Assembly: GCA_963793265.1 (NCBI GenBank)
Contig: CAWBZI010000004.1
Location: 352,001-416,000 of the forward strand
Direction of reading: 5' to 3'
Origin: an uncultured cyanobacterium
GTDB taxonomy: Bacteria > Cyanobacteriota > Cyanobacteriia > Phormidesmidales > Phormidesmidaceae
Length of the DNA stretch: 64,000 nt
Shown: one piece after another, positions 23,165 through 31,818 of the stretch
Position numbering within the stretch: the stretch's first letter is position 1
Layout of the letters: the number at the start of each line of letters is the position of its first letter
Notes under the pieces: model-generated
Database searches by the model: none
Told to the model about the DNA's origin: nothing
The model's input: the letters and a program-made list of their open reading frames with translations, nothing else
Translations under genes and position numbers: made by a program

Positions 23165-24226
23165 TTAGAATTTTTGCTTTTGTTTTTGATATTGAAGATA
23201 ACGTATGGACTCTATGCTAGATGGATCATAAGCAACTTCTTGAGCTGCCATATGTACATTTCCCCACAGATCGAGAGCAGATAAAGGAAGGTTATTTTTG
23301 GCTTTGTAAGGACGCGTTAGCAAAAAATGAAAGTGACTGGCTTTAGCGTTTCTGTCTTGTGCTTTTTCACGCAAGAAGATTTCTTTGTCAATCTGTTTAG
23401 GCGTTTTTGCTGTAGCACTTTCGGCTTCACTCTTTATCTTTTCCTTACTGGTCTTTGTTTTTGACCATTCAGGAAAGAATTCAAAAGGATCAGAGGCTTC
23501 AGGTGTATGAGAGAATGACACGTGTTGAGGTGTAGAAAACCCCTGAATTAGGCTGAAAATTGCGGTCGTTACGAGCAAGCCTAAAACTCTAGCATAGGTC
23601 AAAAAGCTACCTGCCCGGCGAGCCGATGCTTGTTGTTGAACGGCAAGCTGGTTGATGCGGTCATTCTGGATTTTGAAAGTAATATCGCGAATTTCATTGC
23701 GAGAATCTACTTTGTTCGGCACGCTGGTCGTTGAAACACCGCGCTGCGATTCAATCGCGGCACTACTTTCTAAATCGGTCTTTAACAGATTGAGTTGAAC
23801 ATCAGCAGGTGTAATTTGAAGCAGCTCAGCAATTCTGTTGATATCAAGATTGGAGAGATGCTGCTGCCTCGAAAGCTGGTAGTAGTCCAGCAGTGTTTGG
23901 GTTTGCGCCACCGATGTCTTACATGCATTAACCTGCTGAGTCCCTTTCAGCGTAGGCATATTTAGTACAGGCGCTAGCGTTTCTCTTAAAACAAACTCCT
24001 TGACAATTGCTGTTTGGTCGTCTGCGTAAGCTTTAGCGCGATCGCCATCAAGATCTATATCAGAAAAAAGTGCCTCATCAATTTCATTTGTCAGCACAGC
24101 AAATGTTAGATCTCGGCAAGCGAAATCTAACAGTTGGCCCATGCGGTCGGCTTGTTGATCGGAGAGTTCGATTGCACTTGTCAGCGCGAGATATTCCCGC
24201 GTAAGTGCAGCGTAGTCGGCGTCCAT
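23165..24226 (-). CDS. Putative membrane-anchored anti-sigma factor (two N-terminal helical repeats, one TM, C-terminal tail)
   Basis: Directly downstream of a sigma gene; repeats EY..L.....LS....DR...LL shared with ORF 25171; TM YARVLGLLVTTAIFSLI; function inferred. Confidence 0.55.
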   Translation of the reverse strand: MDADYAALTREYLALTSAIELSDQQADRMGQLLDFACRDLTFAVLTNEIDEALFSDIDLDGDRAKAYADDQTAIVKEFVLRETLAPVLNMPTLKGTQQVNACKTSVAQTQTLLDYYQLSRQQHLSNLDINRIAELLQITPADVQLNLLKTDLESSAAIESQRGVSTTSVPNKVDSRNEIRDITFKIQNDRINQLAVQQQASARRAGSFLTYARVLGLLVTTAIFSLIQGFSTPQHVSFSHTPEASDPFEFFPEWSKTKTSKEKIKSEAESATAKTPKQIDKEIFLREKAQDRNAKASHFHFLLTRPYKAKNNLPLSALDLWGNVHMAAQEVAYDPSSIESIRYLQYQKQKQKF

Positions 24227-24299
24227 GATCGTATCCTACAGTATTAGCAAAAGTTCGTTTGTCCTATGCATTGCTCTATGCTTCTTTTTATGTGCCTTG

Positions 24300-24968
24300 C
24301 TATGGGCTATCAAAAGCCCGGCGAAGTCGATGCAAGGCGCGTTCTCCCTGCTTCCGAAGCGTCGATTCTGAGATGTCAATCTGTTGCGTTTTGGATAATC
24401 TATCTTTTACTTCGCGCCATTTTAGGCCCATACCCACTCGGAGATTTAAGATCTCTCGGTCGCGCTCGCTCATACTATTCATTGTTAAAACCAACTTATT
24501 GATCATGCTCTCGTTAATGTAGGCAGGCGATGTCATCTCACCGCTAAACGTTGCAATCTCCTTAGTATTCTTCTTGAGAATATTGGTATTTCTTTTAGAG
24601 CGTCTGCTGTATTCGTGAATAATATTATACGAAACACTATTCATCCACGACAGCAAGTTATCAATCTCCCTGCCTTCCTCAAGCTGAAGATGAGTCCGAA
24701 GATAGGCTTCGATCAGCACTTCATCAGCGCTGTGATAAGACTCTAAATGAAACTGACGCAGCCTTTTCTGTACAGAAAAAAACATTTTACGAAAGCTACT
24801 GTCCGATTGGGTGTCGAGCAAGGCATCCATAAGGGTGTTCAGCGACTGCAGCCTTTCGGCAATTTCGGCGCTATGGGTGGGTATTTCATCAGGATAAAAG
24901 GCAGGCCCGTCCTGAGGCCCGTTGGTAGACAGATGCATTGGCGTTTTGTCAGGGGTTGGCATGAGCAT
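24300..24968 (-). CDS. ECF-like sigma-70 family factor
   Basis: Region 2 (DEVLIEAYLR...IDNLLSWMNSVSYNIIHEYSR) and region 4 (MSERDREILNLRVGMGLKWREV...TLRKQGERALHRLR); start uncertain (24968, 24962 or 24938). Confidence 0.8.
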   Translation of the reverse strand: MLMPTPDKTPMHLSTNGPQDGPAFYPDEIPTHSAEIAERLQSLNTLMDALLDTQSDSSFRKMFFSVQKRLRQFHLESYHSADEVLIEAYLRTHLQLEEGREIDNLLSWMNSVSYNIIHEYSRRSKRNTNILKKNTKEIATFSGEMTSPAYINESMINKLVLTMNSMSERDREILNLRVGMGLKWREVKDRLSKTQQIDISESTLRKQGERALHRLRRAFDSP

Positions 24969-25170
24969 TCCTGCGCGCGTCCGAGTATAAGTGACATAGA
25001 CCTGCAAAAATGTGACACCTTTGCAGGTAAAGGTATATATGGGTTGTTTTTCAAGGGTAACGAAGATGTTATGAATGTTTACCAAGCGGCGATCGCTTAG
25101 CTTATTAGCAGATAAGCGATCGCCCAGCAGTCGGATAAGTCGGCACGAACGAGACTTAACAGATTAGCCG

Positions 25171-25659: not shown

Positions 25660-25829
25660 TTCTCTATGAATAAGCAGAGAAAGTGTGACAGACGAATCGA
25701 AAAATAATTGCAAGTCCTTGCTGAGTATTGCTTTTGGCAGTTTGCTCTGTCATAAACCGGGGGCCATAGGAAAGGGAAAGCCGCTGTGGGCCTTCCCCTA
25801 TTTATCGTCTAGCGACTATGACCTACCCG

Positions 25830-26132
25830 CTAACAATCATGCGTTAATTCCCTGATAATTCTGTAGCTCTCAAGCCGCAGCCAAGCCATAGGGTTGCCAA
25901 TAGGCTCTCCCTGCTCTAAAGCGGCTAGACCTTGCTGATAGCCCTGTAGCAGTATGTACTCTACAGTCGGCTTGGGCGATATGGGCGATCGCGCCAAAGC
26001 CTGCGATACAGATATCCATATACTCAAGGTGCTTTGATTGCCCTGACGACAGATATCTTTCATTGCGTCTTTAAGCTGCTTATGCTTAGGATTATTAGGG
26101 TCGTAGGCAACGACCGTCTGGGGCTTAGTCAT
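25830..26132 (-). CDS. Stand-alone sigma region-2-like protein (no region 4)
   Basis: SVSQAL...TVEYILLQGYQQGLAALEQGEPIGNPMAWLRLESYRIIREL aligns with region 2 of both flanking sigma factors; GGAG RBS. Confidence 0.7.
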   Translation of the reverse strand: MTKPQTVVAYDPNNPKHKQLKDAMKDICRQGNQSTLSIWISVSQALARSPISPKPTVEYILLQGYQQGLAALEQGEPIGNPMAWLRLESYRIIRELTHDC

Positions 26133-26222
26133 TAAAAATACTCCAAAAAAGGTTCCTCAGTTCTATATGGCGTACATATGTAAAGCGGTTGTTGCCAAAA
26201 AACAGCTCGTCTTAAAAGCTGG

Positions 26223-26861
26223 TCAATCTAAAGACAGATCTGCTTTTAACTGCTGTATCGCTCGGTGTTTTCGCTGCCTGAGCGCCCCCAAAGAACACTG
26301 TTGATAGCCCATAGCAACCAATCGGTCTTGAACGATCTTCCACTGCAACCCTTCCACAATATTCAGGGTCAAGATGTCTTGATCTAAGCGTGAAAGCTGC
26401 TGAAAAGACTGCTGGATCTGCTGGTGCTTTGGACTTAGCTCATCATCAGATAGCCATTCTGGCTCAGTCCACGAATCGGGTATCCGCTCAATTATCTCTG
26501 TCTGTGCTTCTTGCACTCTTCTACGCCGCTTCTCCCGACTTTCTTCTTTAATAATGTAGCGACAGGTTAGCCTTATCCAGGCAATAGGGACAGGAATGCT
26601 TTTGCCCTTATTAATTGCCGCAATGCCGCGTACAACGGCCTCGTTAATAACTGACGCCGTTGTGCAGGATCTACCCAGGTCGTACCGTCGTAGCTCGGCG
26701 GCCACTGATACCATGAGGCTAATCATGTCTTGATTTTTGGGCTCGTATATGGTCATAATCGCCTGGTAAAAAGCCTCGTGCTCGGGCGTTAGGCTTGCCT
26801 GAGCTGCTCGATCGGTACCTCGAAGTGAGCGTGTTTTATTACGCTTAGCATGATGAGTCAT
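26223..26861 (-). CDS. ECF-like sigma-70 family factor
   Basis: VINEAVVRG...IPVPIAWIRLTCRYIIKEESR (region 2); LSRLDQDILTLNIVEGLQWKIV...ALRQRKHRAIQQLK (region 4). Confidence 0.82.
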   Translation of the reverse strand: MTHHAKRNKTRSLRGTDRAAQASLTPEHEAFYQAIMTIYEPKNQDMISLMVSVAAELRRYDLGRSCTTASVINEAVVRGIAAINKGKSIPVPIAWIRLTCRYIIKEESREKRRRRVQEAQTEIIERIPDSWTEPEWLSDDELSPKHQQIQQSFQQLSRLDQDILTLNIVEGLQWKIVQDRLVAMGYQQCSLGALRQRKHRAIQQLKADLSLD

Positions 26862-27375
26862 GTTTTTTTCCTAGAGAATGGCAAACATGTGTATGAGTAA
26901 GAAGAAAGCCCTATTAAAACGGGGCGGCGGGATTAAAGAAACTTTCTTGGATGTATGAATGACGAGTGCAGATAAGAATCTATTTAGGCCCGCACAACGG
27001 TTGTTAAAATAGGGTTTGGCTCGATACCACAACCTTCTATGTGAAAACTGATGAAAGTGTGACAGAGGTAGTTGACGGTGGCTGTTAGCGGTGATACCTA
27101 GCTATTGTTCTAACGTCTTAATGAGGCGGTATGCTAGCTCGTTGTCCTACATAGTGGCTTATTTCTGTACTGATAAACCCGCTGAAACCCTTGCTATAAG
27201 GGAACCTGCAATTCATGCATTTTCTTGTACGAACATTTCTTTTATACTAATGAAAATTAATGTGGGGATAGGTATACGTTTTTTAGTGACCAGGCGTTGA
27301 TGCGGCGATCGCATCACAACCTGTAGCCACCGCGAAAAAAAGATAAACAAAAGGTAGTGCAATCAGGAAAAATCT

Positions 27376-28683
27376 ATGCCTTCATTGGATAAGGACGAGA
27401 ATAGGAAAAATCGACAGCAGCAGAAAGCGTGGCGGGACAAGGTGATCGCTCGGCTAGGTTTTAAAGACATGGCAGCGCTAGCAAGAGCAGCAGGCGTTAA
27501 CGATGGTGATCTATCAGGTATTTCGAGAGGAACCCGCAAGCCTAGTAACGCAGTAGCTCATAAGCTGATCCTGGCAATTCGAGACTGTAATTATCAAAAA
27601 GGATGGAACTATGCTGAAGCTGCCCTATATTTTCAAGACACTTTCAACTACCTGCGGGGTTACTATGCTCAGCAGCGCGGTGAGAAGGCTGTCTTTATCG
27701 ACGAAGAAGACATTCTAAAGTGGTACGACAGCTACCTGTATTGCACATCTCAGCAGCAGGAAGACTTTGCTGAACCGCTGAGCATTATTGCAGCAAGTAC
27801 TTCTGTAGGAGAGTCTCTATCCTATTTATTAGAATCTCTCAAGAACTGGAAGATGAAGCATGACTTTGATCTGCTAGGAAAGAAAAAGTATCGATTTCAA
27901 CACAATAAAGCGTTTATTATTAAGCCGACTTTATATAGAGCTATGAAGGAGGAACAGTATTATGAGCAAATCAAGGCTATATATACGGAGATAAGACATA
28001 TCGCGTACCTTTGCGGTGCCTTTGAGTTAGTGCAATCAATGTCTTACTGGCTTCGCGATCAGGCCAAGCAGCGCCACGATATTCAAACAGAAGTAAAAAC
28101 TAAGGTAACGATTGCATGGATGCAAACGTCATTTAACAGTACACAGAGCCTTCAAGATGCTAAACAACTTGTTCAAGCGGTTAACGGCATTGTTAGCGCT
28201 AGTAGCTTTCTTGCAGAGGTAAGCGCTGAAGATATGGATGTTATTGCAACGCTAGCAGAGCTACGCATGAGGCTAGAAATTCGGTTGGCTCAAAAGTGCT
28301 ATCTGCCATTGAGCCTCGAAAGGTTCAACAAGCTCTCAGAAGAATCTGAGGTGCTGTTATGTTCCCCAGCTAGTTTCCATGCGCTGCCTACTCGATTGCA
28401 GTCTCGATATACTATTCCACTTGACTATCAATACGGTGTATATTTGCATAGTCTGAGAGACTATGAGGGTGCGCAGCTAAAGTTTGAGTCGATTGTTGCT
28501 AGAGCTAACCGCATCGGCTGGATTAGGATAGAACAAGCTGCCTATAGCTGGCTGGCTGAGTCTTTTGAAAAGATGGGCGACAGAGAAAATTGCTGTGCCA
28601 TGCTAGAGAAAATGACGGTTCCTTATCTACCCAAACGACAGCTAATTAGGGCAAACATTCGAGCGAATATTGCAGAAGTCTGA
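27376..28683 (+). CDS. XRE-type HTH protein with a C-terminal TPR-like helical domain
   Basis: MAALARAAGVNDGDLSGISRGTRKPS HTH; C-terminal helical repeats (YQYGVYLHSLRDYEGAQLKFE..., IGWIR..AAYSWLA). Confidence 0.7.
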   Translation: MPSLDKDENRKNRQQQKAWRDKVIARLGFKDMAALARAAGVNDGDLSGISRGTRKPSNAVAHKLILAIRDCNYQKGWNYAEAALYFQDTFNYLRGYYAQQRGEKAVFIDEEDILKWYDSYLYCTSQQQEDFAEPLSIIAASTSVGESLSYLLESLKNWKMKHDFDLLGKKKYRFQHNKAFIIKPTLYRAMKEEQYYEQIKAIYTEIRHIAYLCGAFELVQSMSYWLRDQAKQRHDIQTEVKTKVTIAWMQTSFNSTQSLQDAKQLVQAVNGIVSASSFLAEVSAEDMDVIATLAELRMRLEIRLAQKCYLPLSLERFNKLSEESEVLLCSPASFHALPTRLQSRYTIPLDYQYGVYLHSLRDYEGAQLKFESIVARANRIGWIRIEQAAYSWLAESFEKMGDRENCCAMLEKMTVPYLPKRQLIRANIRANIAEV

Positions 28684-28750: not shown

Positions 28751-29932
28751 ATGACCGATAACACCCACGTTAAAGTGCCAGCAGATAAGCTGCTGAGCGA
28801 TCTGATCGAGAGCGAAGATGTTGATAAAAAAGTGAGCGAGAAGCTTGAGCAGCAGGCCGCTATTCGGTTTGAGTCTCTAAGCTTTAAAGCTTTAAACAAC
28901 GAGTGCAACAAACTTAAAGAAAGGCTAGAGAAATACTACAGATACTTGAAAGGTTGGGAGCTGCACCATGATTTTGAACTATGGGAGCACGCTGAAAGTC
29001 ATGTCGGCAGCGTTTGGCTAAAGCTGAGAAGCGCCCTGCATTTGGCGATGGAGTATGGGCTATACGAAGAGGTGAAGGCGATCTTTTTAGAGCTGAAGCT
29101 GCTGCTGCAAACGGCAGGCTTTGTTAAAGACCGTATCTACTTAGCGGCCTGGTTAAAATCAGAAGCCGAACGCCGCCAGGACTGGATTAGTATGCACCTG
29201 ATGACCGCTTCGTTGGTTTGGTCGTATACGTCTTTTGGCTGTAATCAAAATATTGCAAAGGCAGATGAGCTTTGGAGCGACCTGATCCCGTTTTTACTCA
29301 GCGTTGGTGATACGACAGATTGTAACGAATGCAGAAAGTATTTTCGCGATAGAGAAGATATTTATCCTTACACCGAGATGCTGGTAGATATTTACGAGAC
29401 GGGTACTCGAATAGCGATACGATGTTCAAGATTTGATGATGTAAAAGAGTATATTCGTAGGGGCCGCGCGGAGATTTCACTGCTCTCTCAAAGCGGATTT
29501 TTGTCAATACGGCTAAAGGAGCGCTTTGATATCGCTTTTAGCTATCATGAGGCGATCGCCTGCTACTTAACCAGCCAATATGAGCGTGCGCAGGCTTTGT
29601 TTAACGATGCCGTTGAGCGTGGTGAAATGATCGCCTGGAACCGGCTAGTGCGTGGGGCTAAGAGCTGGCTAGCTACGATTGCAATTGAGCTGGAAAATTA
29701 TGTTGAATGCGAGCAAATCTTGTCTGAGATTGTAGAAGATTGTGAGCTAAATAAGAGCAAGCGAGACGTGATGTGCCATTTGGTTAAGGCCCGGCTGTTG
29801 CACGAACAGGGACAGCCAAGCGAGCAGGTCATGAGTGAGAAAAAGGCGATCGCGGCGCTAGAAAAGTTTTTTGAAGAAAGTTCTGGCACCTACGATCTCG
29901 ATTCATTCAGGCTCAAGCCTTGCCCTGTGTAA
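28751..29932 (+). CDS. TPR-like protein, paralog of the C-terminal domain of ORF 27376, no HTH
   Basis: LKGWELHHDFEL vs LKNWKMKHDFDL; AME..LYEEVKAIFLEL vs AMKEEQYYEQIKAIYTEI; IAWNRL..GAKSWLA vs IGWIRI..AAYSWLA. Confidence 0.7.
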   Translation: MTDNTHVKVPADKLLSDLIESEDVDKKVSEKLEQQAAIRFESLSFKALNNECNKLKERLEKYYRYLKGWELHHDFELWEHAESHVGSVWLKLRSALHLAMEYGLYEEVKAIFLELKLLLQTAGFVKDRIYLAAWLKSEAERRQDWISMHLMTASLVWSYTSFGCNQNIAKADELWSDLIPFLLSVGDTTDCNECRKYFRDREDIYPYTEMLVDIYETGTRIAIRCSRFDDVKEYIRRGRAEISLLSQSGFLSIRLKERFDIAFSYHEAIACYLTSQYERAQALFNDAVERGEMIAWNRLVRGAKSWLATIAIELENYVECEQILSEIVEDCELNKSKRDVMCHLVKARLLHEQGQPSEQVMSEKKAIAALEKFFEESSGTYDLDSFRLKPCPV

Positions 29933-29958: not shown

Positions 29959-31818
29959 ATGGATAATGTGAATTTGCCTGAAGCTGACTCGAATTTGTCA
30001 CCGACTAAGCGAGCCTTACTTGCCCTGAAACATCTTCAGGGCAAGCTGGATAAACAGCATGAGCCAATTGCGATCACTGGCATGAGCTGTCGGTTTCCAG
30101 GAGTCGCGGACACACCAGCGGCTTATTGGCAACTGCTAAAGAACAAAAAAGATGCGATCGCCCCCATTCCCCAAGACCGCTGGCCTGCTACCTATCACAG
30201 CACTGAACCTGATGAGCCCGGTAAAGTGATCGCTCATCAAGGCGGTTTCATCCCTCACCTGTACGACTTCGATGCCGCCTTCTTTCGCATTTCTCCCCGT
30301 GAAGCCCTGACCCTCGATCCGCAGCAGCGCCTTGCTTTAGAACTGGGTTGGGAAGCGTTAGAGAATGCCGGAATCTCACCCGAAATGCTTGATAATCAGC
30401 CAGTCGGTGTATTTTTAGGCATTAGCAGCATTGACTACTGGCAACAGGTTTTAGCACAGTCTTCTGAGGCCATTGATGCTTACCTTGCCACGGGTAACAG
30501 TCATAGCGTTGCGGCCGGGCGACTCTCCTTTTTATTAGGACTCAACGGCCCTAGTCTGGCCGTTGATACCGCCTGTTCTTCTTCTTTAGTCGCTGTTCAT
30601 TTAGCCTGCCAAAGCCTCCGACAGCAGGAATGCAGCATCGCGCTGGTCGGCGGTGTAAATCGCATTATCACACCCGCTGCCAGTATTAATTTCTCTAAGG
30701 CCAAAATGCTCTCTGCCGATGGCCGCTGTCGTACTTTTGACGCGGCGGCAAGTGGCTTTGGTCGAGCTGAAGGCGGCGGAATGATTGTACTTAAGCGGCT
30801 AAGTGATGCTGAAGCTCAGGGCGATCGCATCCACGCCGTCATCCTGGGTAGCGCAACCAACCACAACGGACGAACCAATGGCCTTACCGCTCCAAGCACC
30901 ACCGCGCAGCAGACCGTTATTCGTCAGGCTTTAGCTGCTAGCCGCATTGAGCCGAGTCAGGTTAGCTACGTCGAAACGCACGGTACTGGCACCGCACTGG
31001 GCGATCCGATTGAAGTGGCTGCGTTAGGAAAAGCGTATGGGGATAAGCGTGATCGCCCGCTAATCCTGGGCGCTGTTAAAACAAACGTGGGTCATACTGA
31101 AGCCGCTGCCGGTATGGCGGGTTTGATTAAAGCAGTGCTGGCGCTAGAGCAGGCTCAGGTTCCTGCTAATTTGCATTTAAAGCAACCGAATCCTGATATC
31201 AACTGGGATTCTTTGCCGGTTAAACTTCCTCAAGATTCGATGCCCCTACCTTCAGCCGACAGACCTCATACTGCTGGCGTTAGTGCCTTTGGTTTTAACG
31301 GCACGAATGCTCATTTGATTATTCAAGCCTCGCCTGCACGGGCTAAAGGTTCTAACGTTGAACGATCTCAACGGCTTTTGCCACTGTCCGCGCGATCGCC
31401 TGCCGCTCTCAATCAGCTTGTTGCCCGCTATGCCCAACACCTAGCCACCCATCCCGACCTTGATTTGGCTGATTTGTGTTTTACCGCTAGCGTGGGGCGA
31501 TCGCACTTCTCCCATCGCCTAGCGATTGTCGCAGACTCTACTGTAGATCTGCGAAAAATCTTGGTGAGCGTTCTAGCAGGTCGCCCCCACCCTGACTGCT
31601 GGAAAAGCGATCCGGAAACGCCCAGCGCAGACCTGAAGATACTCGCTGAGCCAAACTCTCTTTCATACTGGGCGCAATGCTATGCTCAAGGCCAAACAAT
31701 TGACTGGGAAAGCTTATACTCATCTAGCGATCGCCTATCAGGCCATCGTCAAAAGCTCGTTCTACCGACTTATCCATTTCAGCGCCAGCATTACAGCATC
31801 CATTCGATTTCGGATTAA
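29959..31818 (+). CDS. Stand-alone type I PKS ketosynthase (docking domain, KS, linker; no AT or ACP)
   Basis: EPIAITGMSCRFPG, DPQQRL, DTACSSS, HGTGT, KTNVGH, SAFGFNGTNAH, C-terminal LPTYPFQR; no GHSxG AT motif. Confidence 0.9.
   Translation: MDNVNLPEADSNLSPTKRALLALKHLQGKLDKQHEPIAITGMSCRFPGVADTPAAYWQLLKNKKDAIAPIPQDRWPATYHSTEPDEPGKVIAHQGGFIPHLYDFDAAFFRISPREALTLDPQQRLALELGWEALENAGISPEMLDNQPVGVFLGISSIDYWQQVLAQSSEAIDAYLATGNSHSVAAGRLSFLLGLNGPSLAVDTACSSSLVAVHLACQSLRQQECSIALVGGVNRIITPAASINFSKAKMLSADGRCRTFDAAASGFGRAEGGGMIVLKRLSDAEAQGDRIHAVILGSATNHNGRTNGLTAPSTTAQQTVIRQALAASRIEPSQVSYVETHGTGTALGDPIEVAALGKAYGDKRDRPLILGAVKTNVGHTEAAAGMAGLIKAVLALEQAQVPANLHLKQPNPDINWDSLPVKLPQDSMPLPSADRPHTAGVSAFGFNGTNAHLIIQASPARAKGSNVERSQRLLPLSARSPAALNQLVARYAQHLATHPDLDLADLCFTASVGRSHFSHRLAIVADSTVDLRKILVSVLAGRPHPDCWKSDPETPSADLKILAEPNSLSYWAQCYAQGQTIDWESLYSSSDRLSGHRQKLVLPTYPFQRQHYSIHSISD

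Follow-up and report, generated by a model that had tools for sequence, protein, structure and literature searches.

The window, that is, the whole stretch of 64,000 nucleotides analysed here, contains a group of genes around a small open reading frame that we call mini (P0001; 25830..26132, minus strand). This frame encodes 100 aa from an ATG codon and is preceded, 8 nt 5' of the start, by the ribosome-binding site GGAG (26141..26144, minus strand), the spacing being identical in G164, a genome from the same genus. Upstream lies the gene for a full-length ECF-like sigma factor of 212 aa, the presumed cognate sigma (P0005; 26223..26861, minus strand). Downstream are encoded a soluble protein resembling anti-sigma domains (ASD-like; P0048; 25171..25659, minus strand; 162 aa from the first ATG, the true start being uncertain), a second full-length sigma of the same family (P0006, 220 aa; 24300..24962, minus strand), and a second anti-sigma-like protein of 353 aa (23165..24226, minus strand), which has the same N-terminal domain and one predicted membrane helix and probably serves the second sigma. 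The two full-length factors are called here sigma-U and sigma-D, respectively; these labels were made for this study and are distinct from the cyanobacterial SigA and SigB. No transmembrane helix, peptidoglycan-binding domain, zinc motif or recognised sensor domain was found in the soluble ASD-like protein. Encoded divergently are an HTH-TPR-like protein, a candidate input regulator (27376..28683, plus strand), and its TPR-like paralog (28751..29932, plus strand). These two are 25% identical, the first has an N-terminal HTH according to the Atlas features, and both are candidate signal receivers. The 353-aa protein seems to contain the N-terminal helical domain twice before its membrane helix (HMM matches at about 7-85 and, weakly, at 103-151 of the open frame), and a stand-alone ketosynthase-like frame, recognised by eye, follows the TPR pair at 29959-31818 (plus strand) in the genome under study, G000, and not in G164.

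The initial annotation had read mini as a stand-alone sigma region-2 protein of 100 aa with a GGAG site, aligning with region 2 of both neighbouring sigmas. This description was confirmed by the frame itself, by BLASTP, by the predicted fold and by profile alignment to sigmaE, and the three peptides quoted there are present in the translations. In a seven-protein BLASTP database mini matched sigma-U with 30% identity over 80 aa (E 6e-11) and sigma-D with 29% identity over 76 aa (E 2e-8), in both cases along the N-terminal half alone. Each neighbour joins sigma2 and sigma4 in one chain, the criterion for group 4 (ECF) factors, whereas mini does not. Mini has zero matches in Pfam or NCBIfam, and both sigma-U and sigma-D score below the cut-offs of these collections. 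The predicted structure is a single domain of four helices (pLDDT 87), and seven of its top eight structural matches among 48,161 chains searched are sigma2 domains, with modest Z-scores of 5.2-6.3; Foldseek against the PDB gave no match to the model at E<=0.001. An Atlas search returned mostly unnamed clusters, one of which, at 0.89, has Sigma70_r2 on 26% of its members. The mixed family alignment, used as a profile, matches E. coli sigmaE with 89% probability (E 2.3e-6); a profile of the short proteins only gives no alignment (probability 0.5%), so that the residue mapping used below depends on the mixed alignment. Mini consists of sigma domain 2 only.

The frame was also said to stop right after region 2 without a region-4 remnant, and this was borne out by a family sigma4 HMM, which scores 69-95 bits on full-length members and does not exceed -0.4 bits on any of 12 frames translated from the DNA on either side of mini in G000 and G164. 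On mini itself, which ends 16 residues past Trp84, the HMM gives -1.6 bits, and no sigma4-only frame of the family was found in the six-frame translation of the G000 genome. The stop codon was confirmed without differences in contigs from two runs of an independent study (X3, covering 25775-25949, and X4, covering 25749-26097). Read variants at the locus fall at four sites, none of them in mini, which is too few for a polymorphism test. As for the hairpin reported at about 25765-25800, an 11-bp stem with a 6-nt loop is indeed present 3' of the mini stop (25772..25799, minus strand), but it is weak: it beats chance only modestly (z -2.16; 6 of 200 shuffles are equally good) and, having no T-run, was passed over by the terminator scan.

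The search for homologs of the same length, suggested at the outset, was run as three homology searches which, together with one genome locus, yielded 13 non-redundant short relatives of 98-111 aa, referred to below as minis. Every one of them ends 15-27 residues past the invariant Trp84, and their pairwise identity is 24-71% with a median of 38% (12 minis, a second G164 copy being left out). Several lie on long contigs (268,970, 120,395 and 85,890 bases), hence contig ends cannot account for the short length; three are on contigs of less than 1.5 kb and could be cut. Excluded before counting were P0010 and P0027 (multi-stretch matches in long proteins), P0015 (133 aa, probably a fragment, since it retains the full-length E-A-Y-x-R motif), the near copies P0040 and cluster members P0003, P0004, P0032-P0035 and P0046, the N-terminal piece of L053, which is not a domain, and 14 of 42 full-length rows with identity above 75%. 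A scan of JGI metagenomes with P0002 gave a single match, L005, which was rejected as spurious; nothing was found by tBLASTn against plasmids or by a scan of viral contigs with the ASD alignment.

The sigma family as a whole has matches in 92 of the 173 genomes from this cyanobacterial family. Among the matches listed from these genomes, a list that leaves out four weak ones, a closed short frame is present in G000 and G164 only, short open frames in G085, G115, G123 and G126 having been excluded as contig-edge cuts (checked for G085, judged from coordinates for the rest). No further genome with the short form was found at E<=1e-15 among 401 genomes sampled from the class, and within the genus mini and the 25171 subtype of the ASD-like protein occur in the same two of 46 genomes. 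A patchy distribution of this kind, and the fact that mini in G000 has no promoter motif where G164 has one (see below), would fit a copy of the adjacent sigma that was truncated not long ago and is decaying. Other results speak against this. Against its syntenic ortholog in G164, mini has pN 0.37 and pS 0.77, values used in place of the proposed dN/dS since dS is saturated at this distance; sigma-U is equal in this respect (pN 0.37, pS 0.80), and three other syntenic genes are close. A tree built from 46 sigma2 domains separates the minis from the rest by a single branch, which is weakly supported (74/89). A constrained topology in which mini and its nearest relative join their respective sigma-U proteins was rejected (p-AU 0.0115). 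The short relatives, diverged down to 24% identity, the pN far below pS, and the rejected grouping with its own sigma-U show mini to be an old gene under selection, not a recent truncation. With the sigma4 HMM result added, recent decay is largely refuted, and we regard it as extremely improbable; full-length orthologs with a degraded region 4 downstream, named in advance as the sign of such a truncation, were looked for and not found.

The order of genes in G164 is identical: TPR-like, HTH-TPR-like and, divergently, a second mini, sigma-U, mini and the 25171 ortholog, the syntenic HTH-TPR-like and TPR-like proteins being 49% and 51% identical to those in the window. The G164 locus is without sigma-D and the 23165 gene, its flanking genes differ, and the genomic surroundings of the module as a whole differ between the two genomes. 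The second sigma2-only frame of G164 (L036:8310-8639, plus strand; 109 aa) is directly upstream of sigma-U, so that one sigma is flanked by two minis; it is 22% identical to mini and has none of the seven hallmark residues considered below, and in G000 no trace of this second frame was found. Four more clusters of minis are tied to sigma-U and/or ASD orthologs by equal longest-contig sizes, an indirect form of linkage (3998, for all three genes, and 1736 in one cluster; 6878, 268970 and 8435 in the others). A domain related to 25171 also adjoins most other sigmas of the family. It is followed by PG_binding_1 in 8 of 9 distant family ASDs versus 0 of 10 ASD orthologs of the mini type, and none of the latter has a hydrophobic 19-mer above KD 1.16 or a membrane helix.

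Conservation was compared between the 13 minis and 28 non-redundant full-length relatives by residue counts; the p-values of the losses are overstated, as the compared sequences share ancestry. The buried core residues L61, G68, G75, I78, P81 and W84 are each present in 13/13 minis, and the buried-core score is 0.93 in minis versus 0.84 in full-length proteins. On the surface, E63 is found in 3/13 minis versus 22/28 full-length relatives, A64 in 1/13 versus 22/28, R67 in 1/13 versus 26/28, N91 in 0/13 versus 21/28, E95 in 2/13 versus 26/28, and R98 in 2/13 versus 28/28. The corresponding scores are 0.08 versus 0.62 for the -10 face and 0.08 versus 0.37 for the polar part of region 2.2. The family profile maps positions 62/63 to Q51/E52 of sigmaE in region 2.2, 84 to W73, 91 to N80 and 95 to N84. 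The Gln/Glu pair of region 2.2 is a main core contact. In the text of PMC6648896 available in part, sigmaE N80 is described as an unwinding wedge that aids promoter unwinding, and sigma2 meets the RNAP clamp helices through a conserved polar surface. At the level of sequence, the minis have kept the core of the fold and lost surface residues for core binding and for the -10 face. The region most clearly conserved in the minis in particular is centred on residues 8-35 (V8 in 11/13, P15 in 13/13, H17, K21, D22, M24 and T35): the N-terminal arm and first helix, P12 included, are newly conserved, and so is L69.

A negative regulator, which would occupy core RNA polymerase or bind region 4 of sigma-U and damp the regulon, could make use of the retained sigma2 fold, of the hydrophobic residues kept in region 2.2 (Y65 in 12/13 minis, L/I69 in 13/13) and of the net positive charge of 11/13 minis. 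However, the surface by which sigma2 meets the clamp helices is polar and conserved (PMC6648896, as above), and the polar positions of region 2.2 are those that vary in the minis, as does the -10 face; a competitor for the core would have no need of linkage to one ASD subtype. Competition for core RNAP had been among the roles considered initially; the loss of the polar region-2.2 residues disfavours it, and a damping role in general seems to us quite unlikely.

Seven family hallmark residues allow the two neighbours to be compared directly. The minis keep 0-4 of them, this mini one, the four sigma-U proteins 5-6, the local sigma-U six, and the 28 full-length relatives 6.1 on average; as judged by this count, mini and not the neighbouring sigma-U is the degenerate copy, the reverse of what a split sigma requires. 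A sigma2 subunit of a two-subunit sigma, pairing with region 4 of sigma-U to provide a second -10 specificity, would have the size and adjacency seen here, and the Tyr found at the N80-equivalent position throughout the sigma-U clade (4/4) would make the melting wedge of sigma-U itself atypical. Yet apart from the hallmark counts, the residues for -10 recognition and melting (N91, E95, R98) are lost from the minis, no sigma4-only family gene was found in the six-frame translation of G000, and terminator-like hairpins part sigma-U from mini in both genomes. One of these, with a T-run, was found by consensus scan at 26203..26221 (minus strand), and G164 also has one there; in addition, G164 has such a hairpin 3' of mini, the totals of these scans being not above those in shuffles. 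The suggestion that mini complements another sigma subunit is disfavoured on these grounds, and we hold it to be very unlikely.

Promoter-like motifs, all on the minus strand, precede three genes of the locus: TGTCACA-N16-CATAG upstream of sigma-U (27037..27064), TGTCACA-N15-CATAG upstream of the ASD-like gene (25664..25690), ending 4 nt before its first ATG, and TGTCACA-N16-TCACTT upstream of sigma-D (24989..25017), which has the -10 variant of most other family loci. The bipartite motif TGTCACA-N14/16-(TCAC or CATAG) is found upstream of 12 of 18 family genes versus 0.24 expected, an enrichment that is overstated, as the pattern was derived from the same regions and related loci were included. 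The strict CATAG form has three sites genome-wide versus 0.46 expected, two of them in this locus; the third, TGTCACA-N16-CATAG at G000:C1:1184088 (minus strand), lies outside it and marks a possible regulon target. The motif stands before sigma-U and the anti-sigma gene in G000, mini having none there; in G164 both mini and the anti-sigma gene have it upstream, and a one-base variant is located before sigma-U. The -35 element TGTCACA is identical to that of ECF41 promoters, and the spacer of about 16 nt is similar (PMC3426412, available in part). From these motifs upstream of family genes we infer that the full-length proteins are working, autoregulated ECF-type sigmas. They differ from ECF41 in that the -10 element is TCAC or CATAG in place of CGTC/TGTT and that the proteins, of about 200-220 aa, are without the C-terminal extension. 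In the sigma-U clade, Tyr at the N80 position goes with motifs whose -10 is CATAG, whereas in members with Asn there, sigma-D among them, it is mostly TCAC(T/C); a one-residue switch of promoter specificity at this position is possible.

A complex of mini with residues 42-162 of the 25171 product was modelled with a score of 0.90 in three runs, the best of three controls reaching 0.00. Among solved complexes 116 of 157 attain the mark, as do 2 of 215 mismatched pairs; these counts are approximate with the alignments used, and the pass may reflect likeness to solved sigma/anti-sigma complexes. The runs share at least 88% of contacts, and the pLDDT of the partner is at least 88. In the model, the ASD-like protein wraps mini on regions 2.1/2.2 and 2.3/2.4, and the interface on mini comprises 33-48, 56-65, 78-94 and a few residues in 9-29. 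Eight of nine mappable contact positions of class I ASDs fall inside it (P 0.0013; positions from Table 2 of PMC7406223), and six of the eight most clearly lost positions fall outside. Among the minis, conservation at the interface is not higher than at other positions (0.37 versus 0.35), nor are the minis closer to the cognate sigma there (permutation p 0.39). The model of 25171 is helical, with a weak match to the PupR fold (Z 5.6, rmsd 2.6, 55 aligned), and its sequence has no profile match to RseA. We infer the anti-sigma identity of this protein from its linkage, the complex model and the weak PupR fold match.

Most of the conserved N-terminal arm (V8, P12, P15, H17) is left free by the modelled interface, and therefore another partner besides the ASD-like protein may matter. 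Mini could bind the anti-sigma non-competitively, as a co-factor, scaffold or stabiliser of the sigma/anti-sigma complex, or serve as an adaptor that connects this complex to another protein, such as the TPR pair or a protease, via its N-terminal arm, for which the mini-specific conservation in residues 8-35, the synteny of the TPR genes in G164, and the retention there of two divergent minis around one sigma may be adduced. The modelled surface of the ASD-like protein is nonetheless the one needed by a full sigma2, as the class I contacts indicate, which implies mutual exclusion of mini and sigma, and we consider non-competitive binding unlikely.

The reading that we prefer, with slightly more confidence than doubt, is that mini is a proposed decoy: a PhyR-like anti-anti-sigma reduced to sigma2 alone, which titrates the soluble anti-sigma and so frees sigma-U. 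Titration of anti-sigmas, already considered in the initial annotation, is supported by the conserved linkage to the ASD-like gene and by the predicted complex, with its margin over the controls. Full-length sigma-U, mini and the soluble ASD-like protein would form a three-gene switch, in which mini would sequester the ASD-like protein by the predicted binding, and sigma-U, thereby freed, would transcribe from the TGTCACA-N15/16-CATAG promoters. As no recognised sensor is present in either mini or the ASD-like protein, the state of the switch would depend on how much of each protein is made, with a threshold defined by titration. In G164, the motifs on both the mini gene and the anti-sigma gene would create positive and negative feedback, and the input might, speculatively, come from the divergent HTH-TPR/TPR pair. 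Among the points against titration is that class I ASDs hold sigma2 as well as sigma4, a single mutation on the sigma4 side being enough to abolish RseA activity, according to PMC7406223 in the part available; the binding of a decoy with sigma2 alone may therefore be too weak for competition. As to origin, a minimal partner switch could have arisen by duplication and truncation, a sensor-less anti-sigma being titrated by one or two sigma2 decoys within the sigma's own regulon, with a threshold or bistable response obtained without a kinase, receiver or protease; this we find conceivable but somewhat doubtful.

The closest known parallel is the PhyR/NepR/sigma-EcfG system of Alphaproteobacteria, where the degenerate sigma-like domain of PhyR titrates NepR, and where such a domain is likewise encoded next to a sigma and a small soluble anti-sigma, the promoters being autoregulated (PMC8103513, PMC4598750; both in part). 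The promoter- and core-binding regions of PhyR are degenerate in the same way as those of the minis (PMC8103513, in part). PhyR, however, has sigma2- and sigma4-like subdomains, a phosphorylated receiver and kinase input, whereas mini has sigma2 only and no receiver; mini arose in a different, cyanobacterial sigma family, and the partner modelled for it is built of five helices, with contacts of the class I kind. In SigO-RsoA of Bacillus subtilis and Sig7-Sig8 of Tn916, a small one-domain sigma protein also stands beside a larger sigma-like gene (PMC8103513 and bioRxiv 10.64898/2026.10.01.756105, as far as their text was available). There, two subunits jointly supply regions 2 and 4, whereas the neighbour of mini has both, with the hallmark residues intact, and mini has lost them; the assignment of domains to SigO and RsoA in a table of PMC10141391 is opposite to that in PMC8103513. 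The class I ASD systems (RseA, ChrR, RskA, RsiW) resemble the present one in the eight of nine sigma2 contacts mapped to the modelled interface, but the mini-linked ASD is without RseA profile similarity, zinc motif, membrane anchor or recognised sensor.

Proteins of cyanobacteria in which Pfam recognises r2 or r4 alone have been noted, in the accessible part of PMC11119718, without a function. That survey would probably miss the mini family, which has no Pfam r2 match, and the parent sigma family itself is poorly visible to annotation despite its wide occurrence. Among the literature covered, mainly titles and abstract openings with few subscription papers or supplements, no description of a sigma2-only anti-anti-sigma or of this sigma family was found. 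Release of an ECF sigma by sigma mimicry is known from PhyR, and a receiver-less, single-domain cyanobacterial version would be an independent one. If the decoy reading is true, regulators can occur among the truncated sigma paralogs that are usually dismissed as fragments or pseudogenes, and a lone sigma2 is able to win an anti-sigma from a sigma with two domains. Synthetic biology might also gain an orthogonal titration switch from these components, the three proteins being small and soluble and a promoter being predicted.

In five genomes a sigma of the family carries, fused to its N-terminus, a further sigma2 that is degenerate (sigma2'-sigma2-sigma4, 265-288 aa; L037:5653-6471, L052:1198-1995, L056:1252-2079, L058:1117-1983, L059:1261-2061), the upstream promoter motif being absent in all five. 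In the tree these additional domains form a group of their own (100/99) close to the sigma2 of the same proteins, which suggests a separate internal duplication. A single origin with the minis is neither shown nor rejected (p-AU 0.058), and the free tree sets them apart; a degenerate sigma2 placed before an intact sigma could be a cis version of the decoy. Other arrangements include P0024 (1338 aa), where the family sigma domain is at the C-terminus of a long multi-domain protein, and P0031 (326 aa), where it is also C-terminal and the N-terminus looks PIN-like by eye. Finally, a 20-nt inverted repeat, 95% complementary, links the end of sigma-D (24297-24316) with the region-4 coding part of sigma-U (26298-26317), 1981 nt apart.
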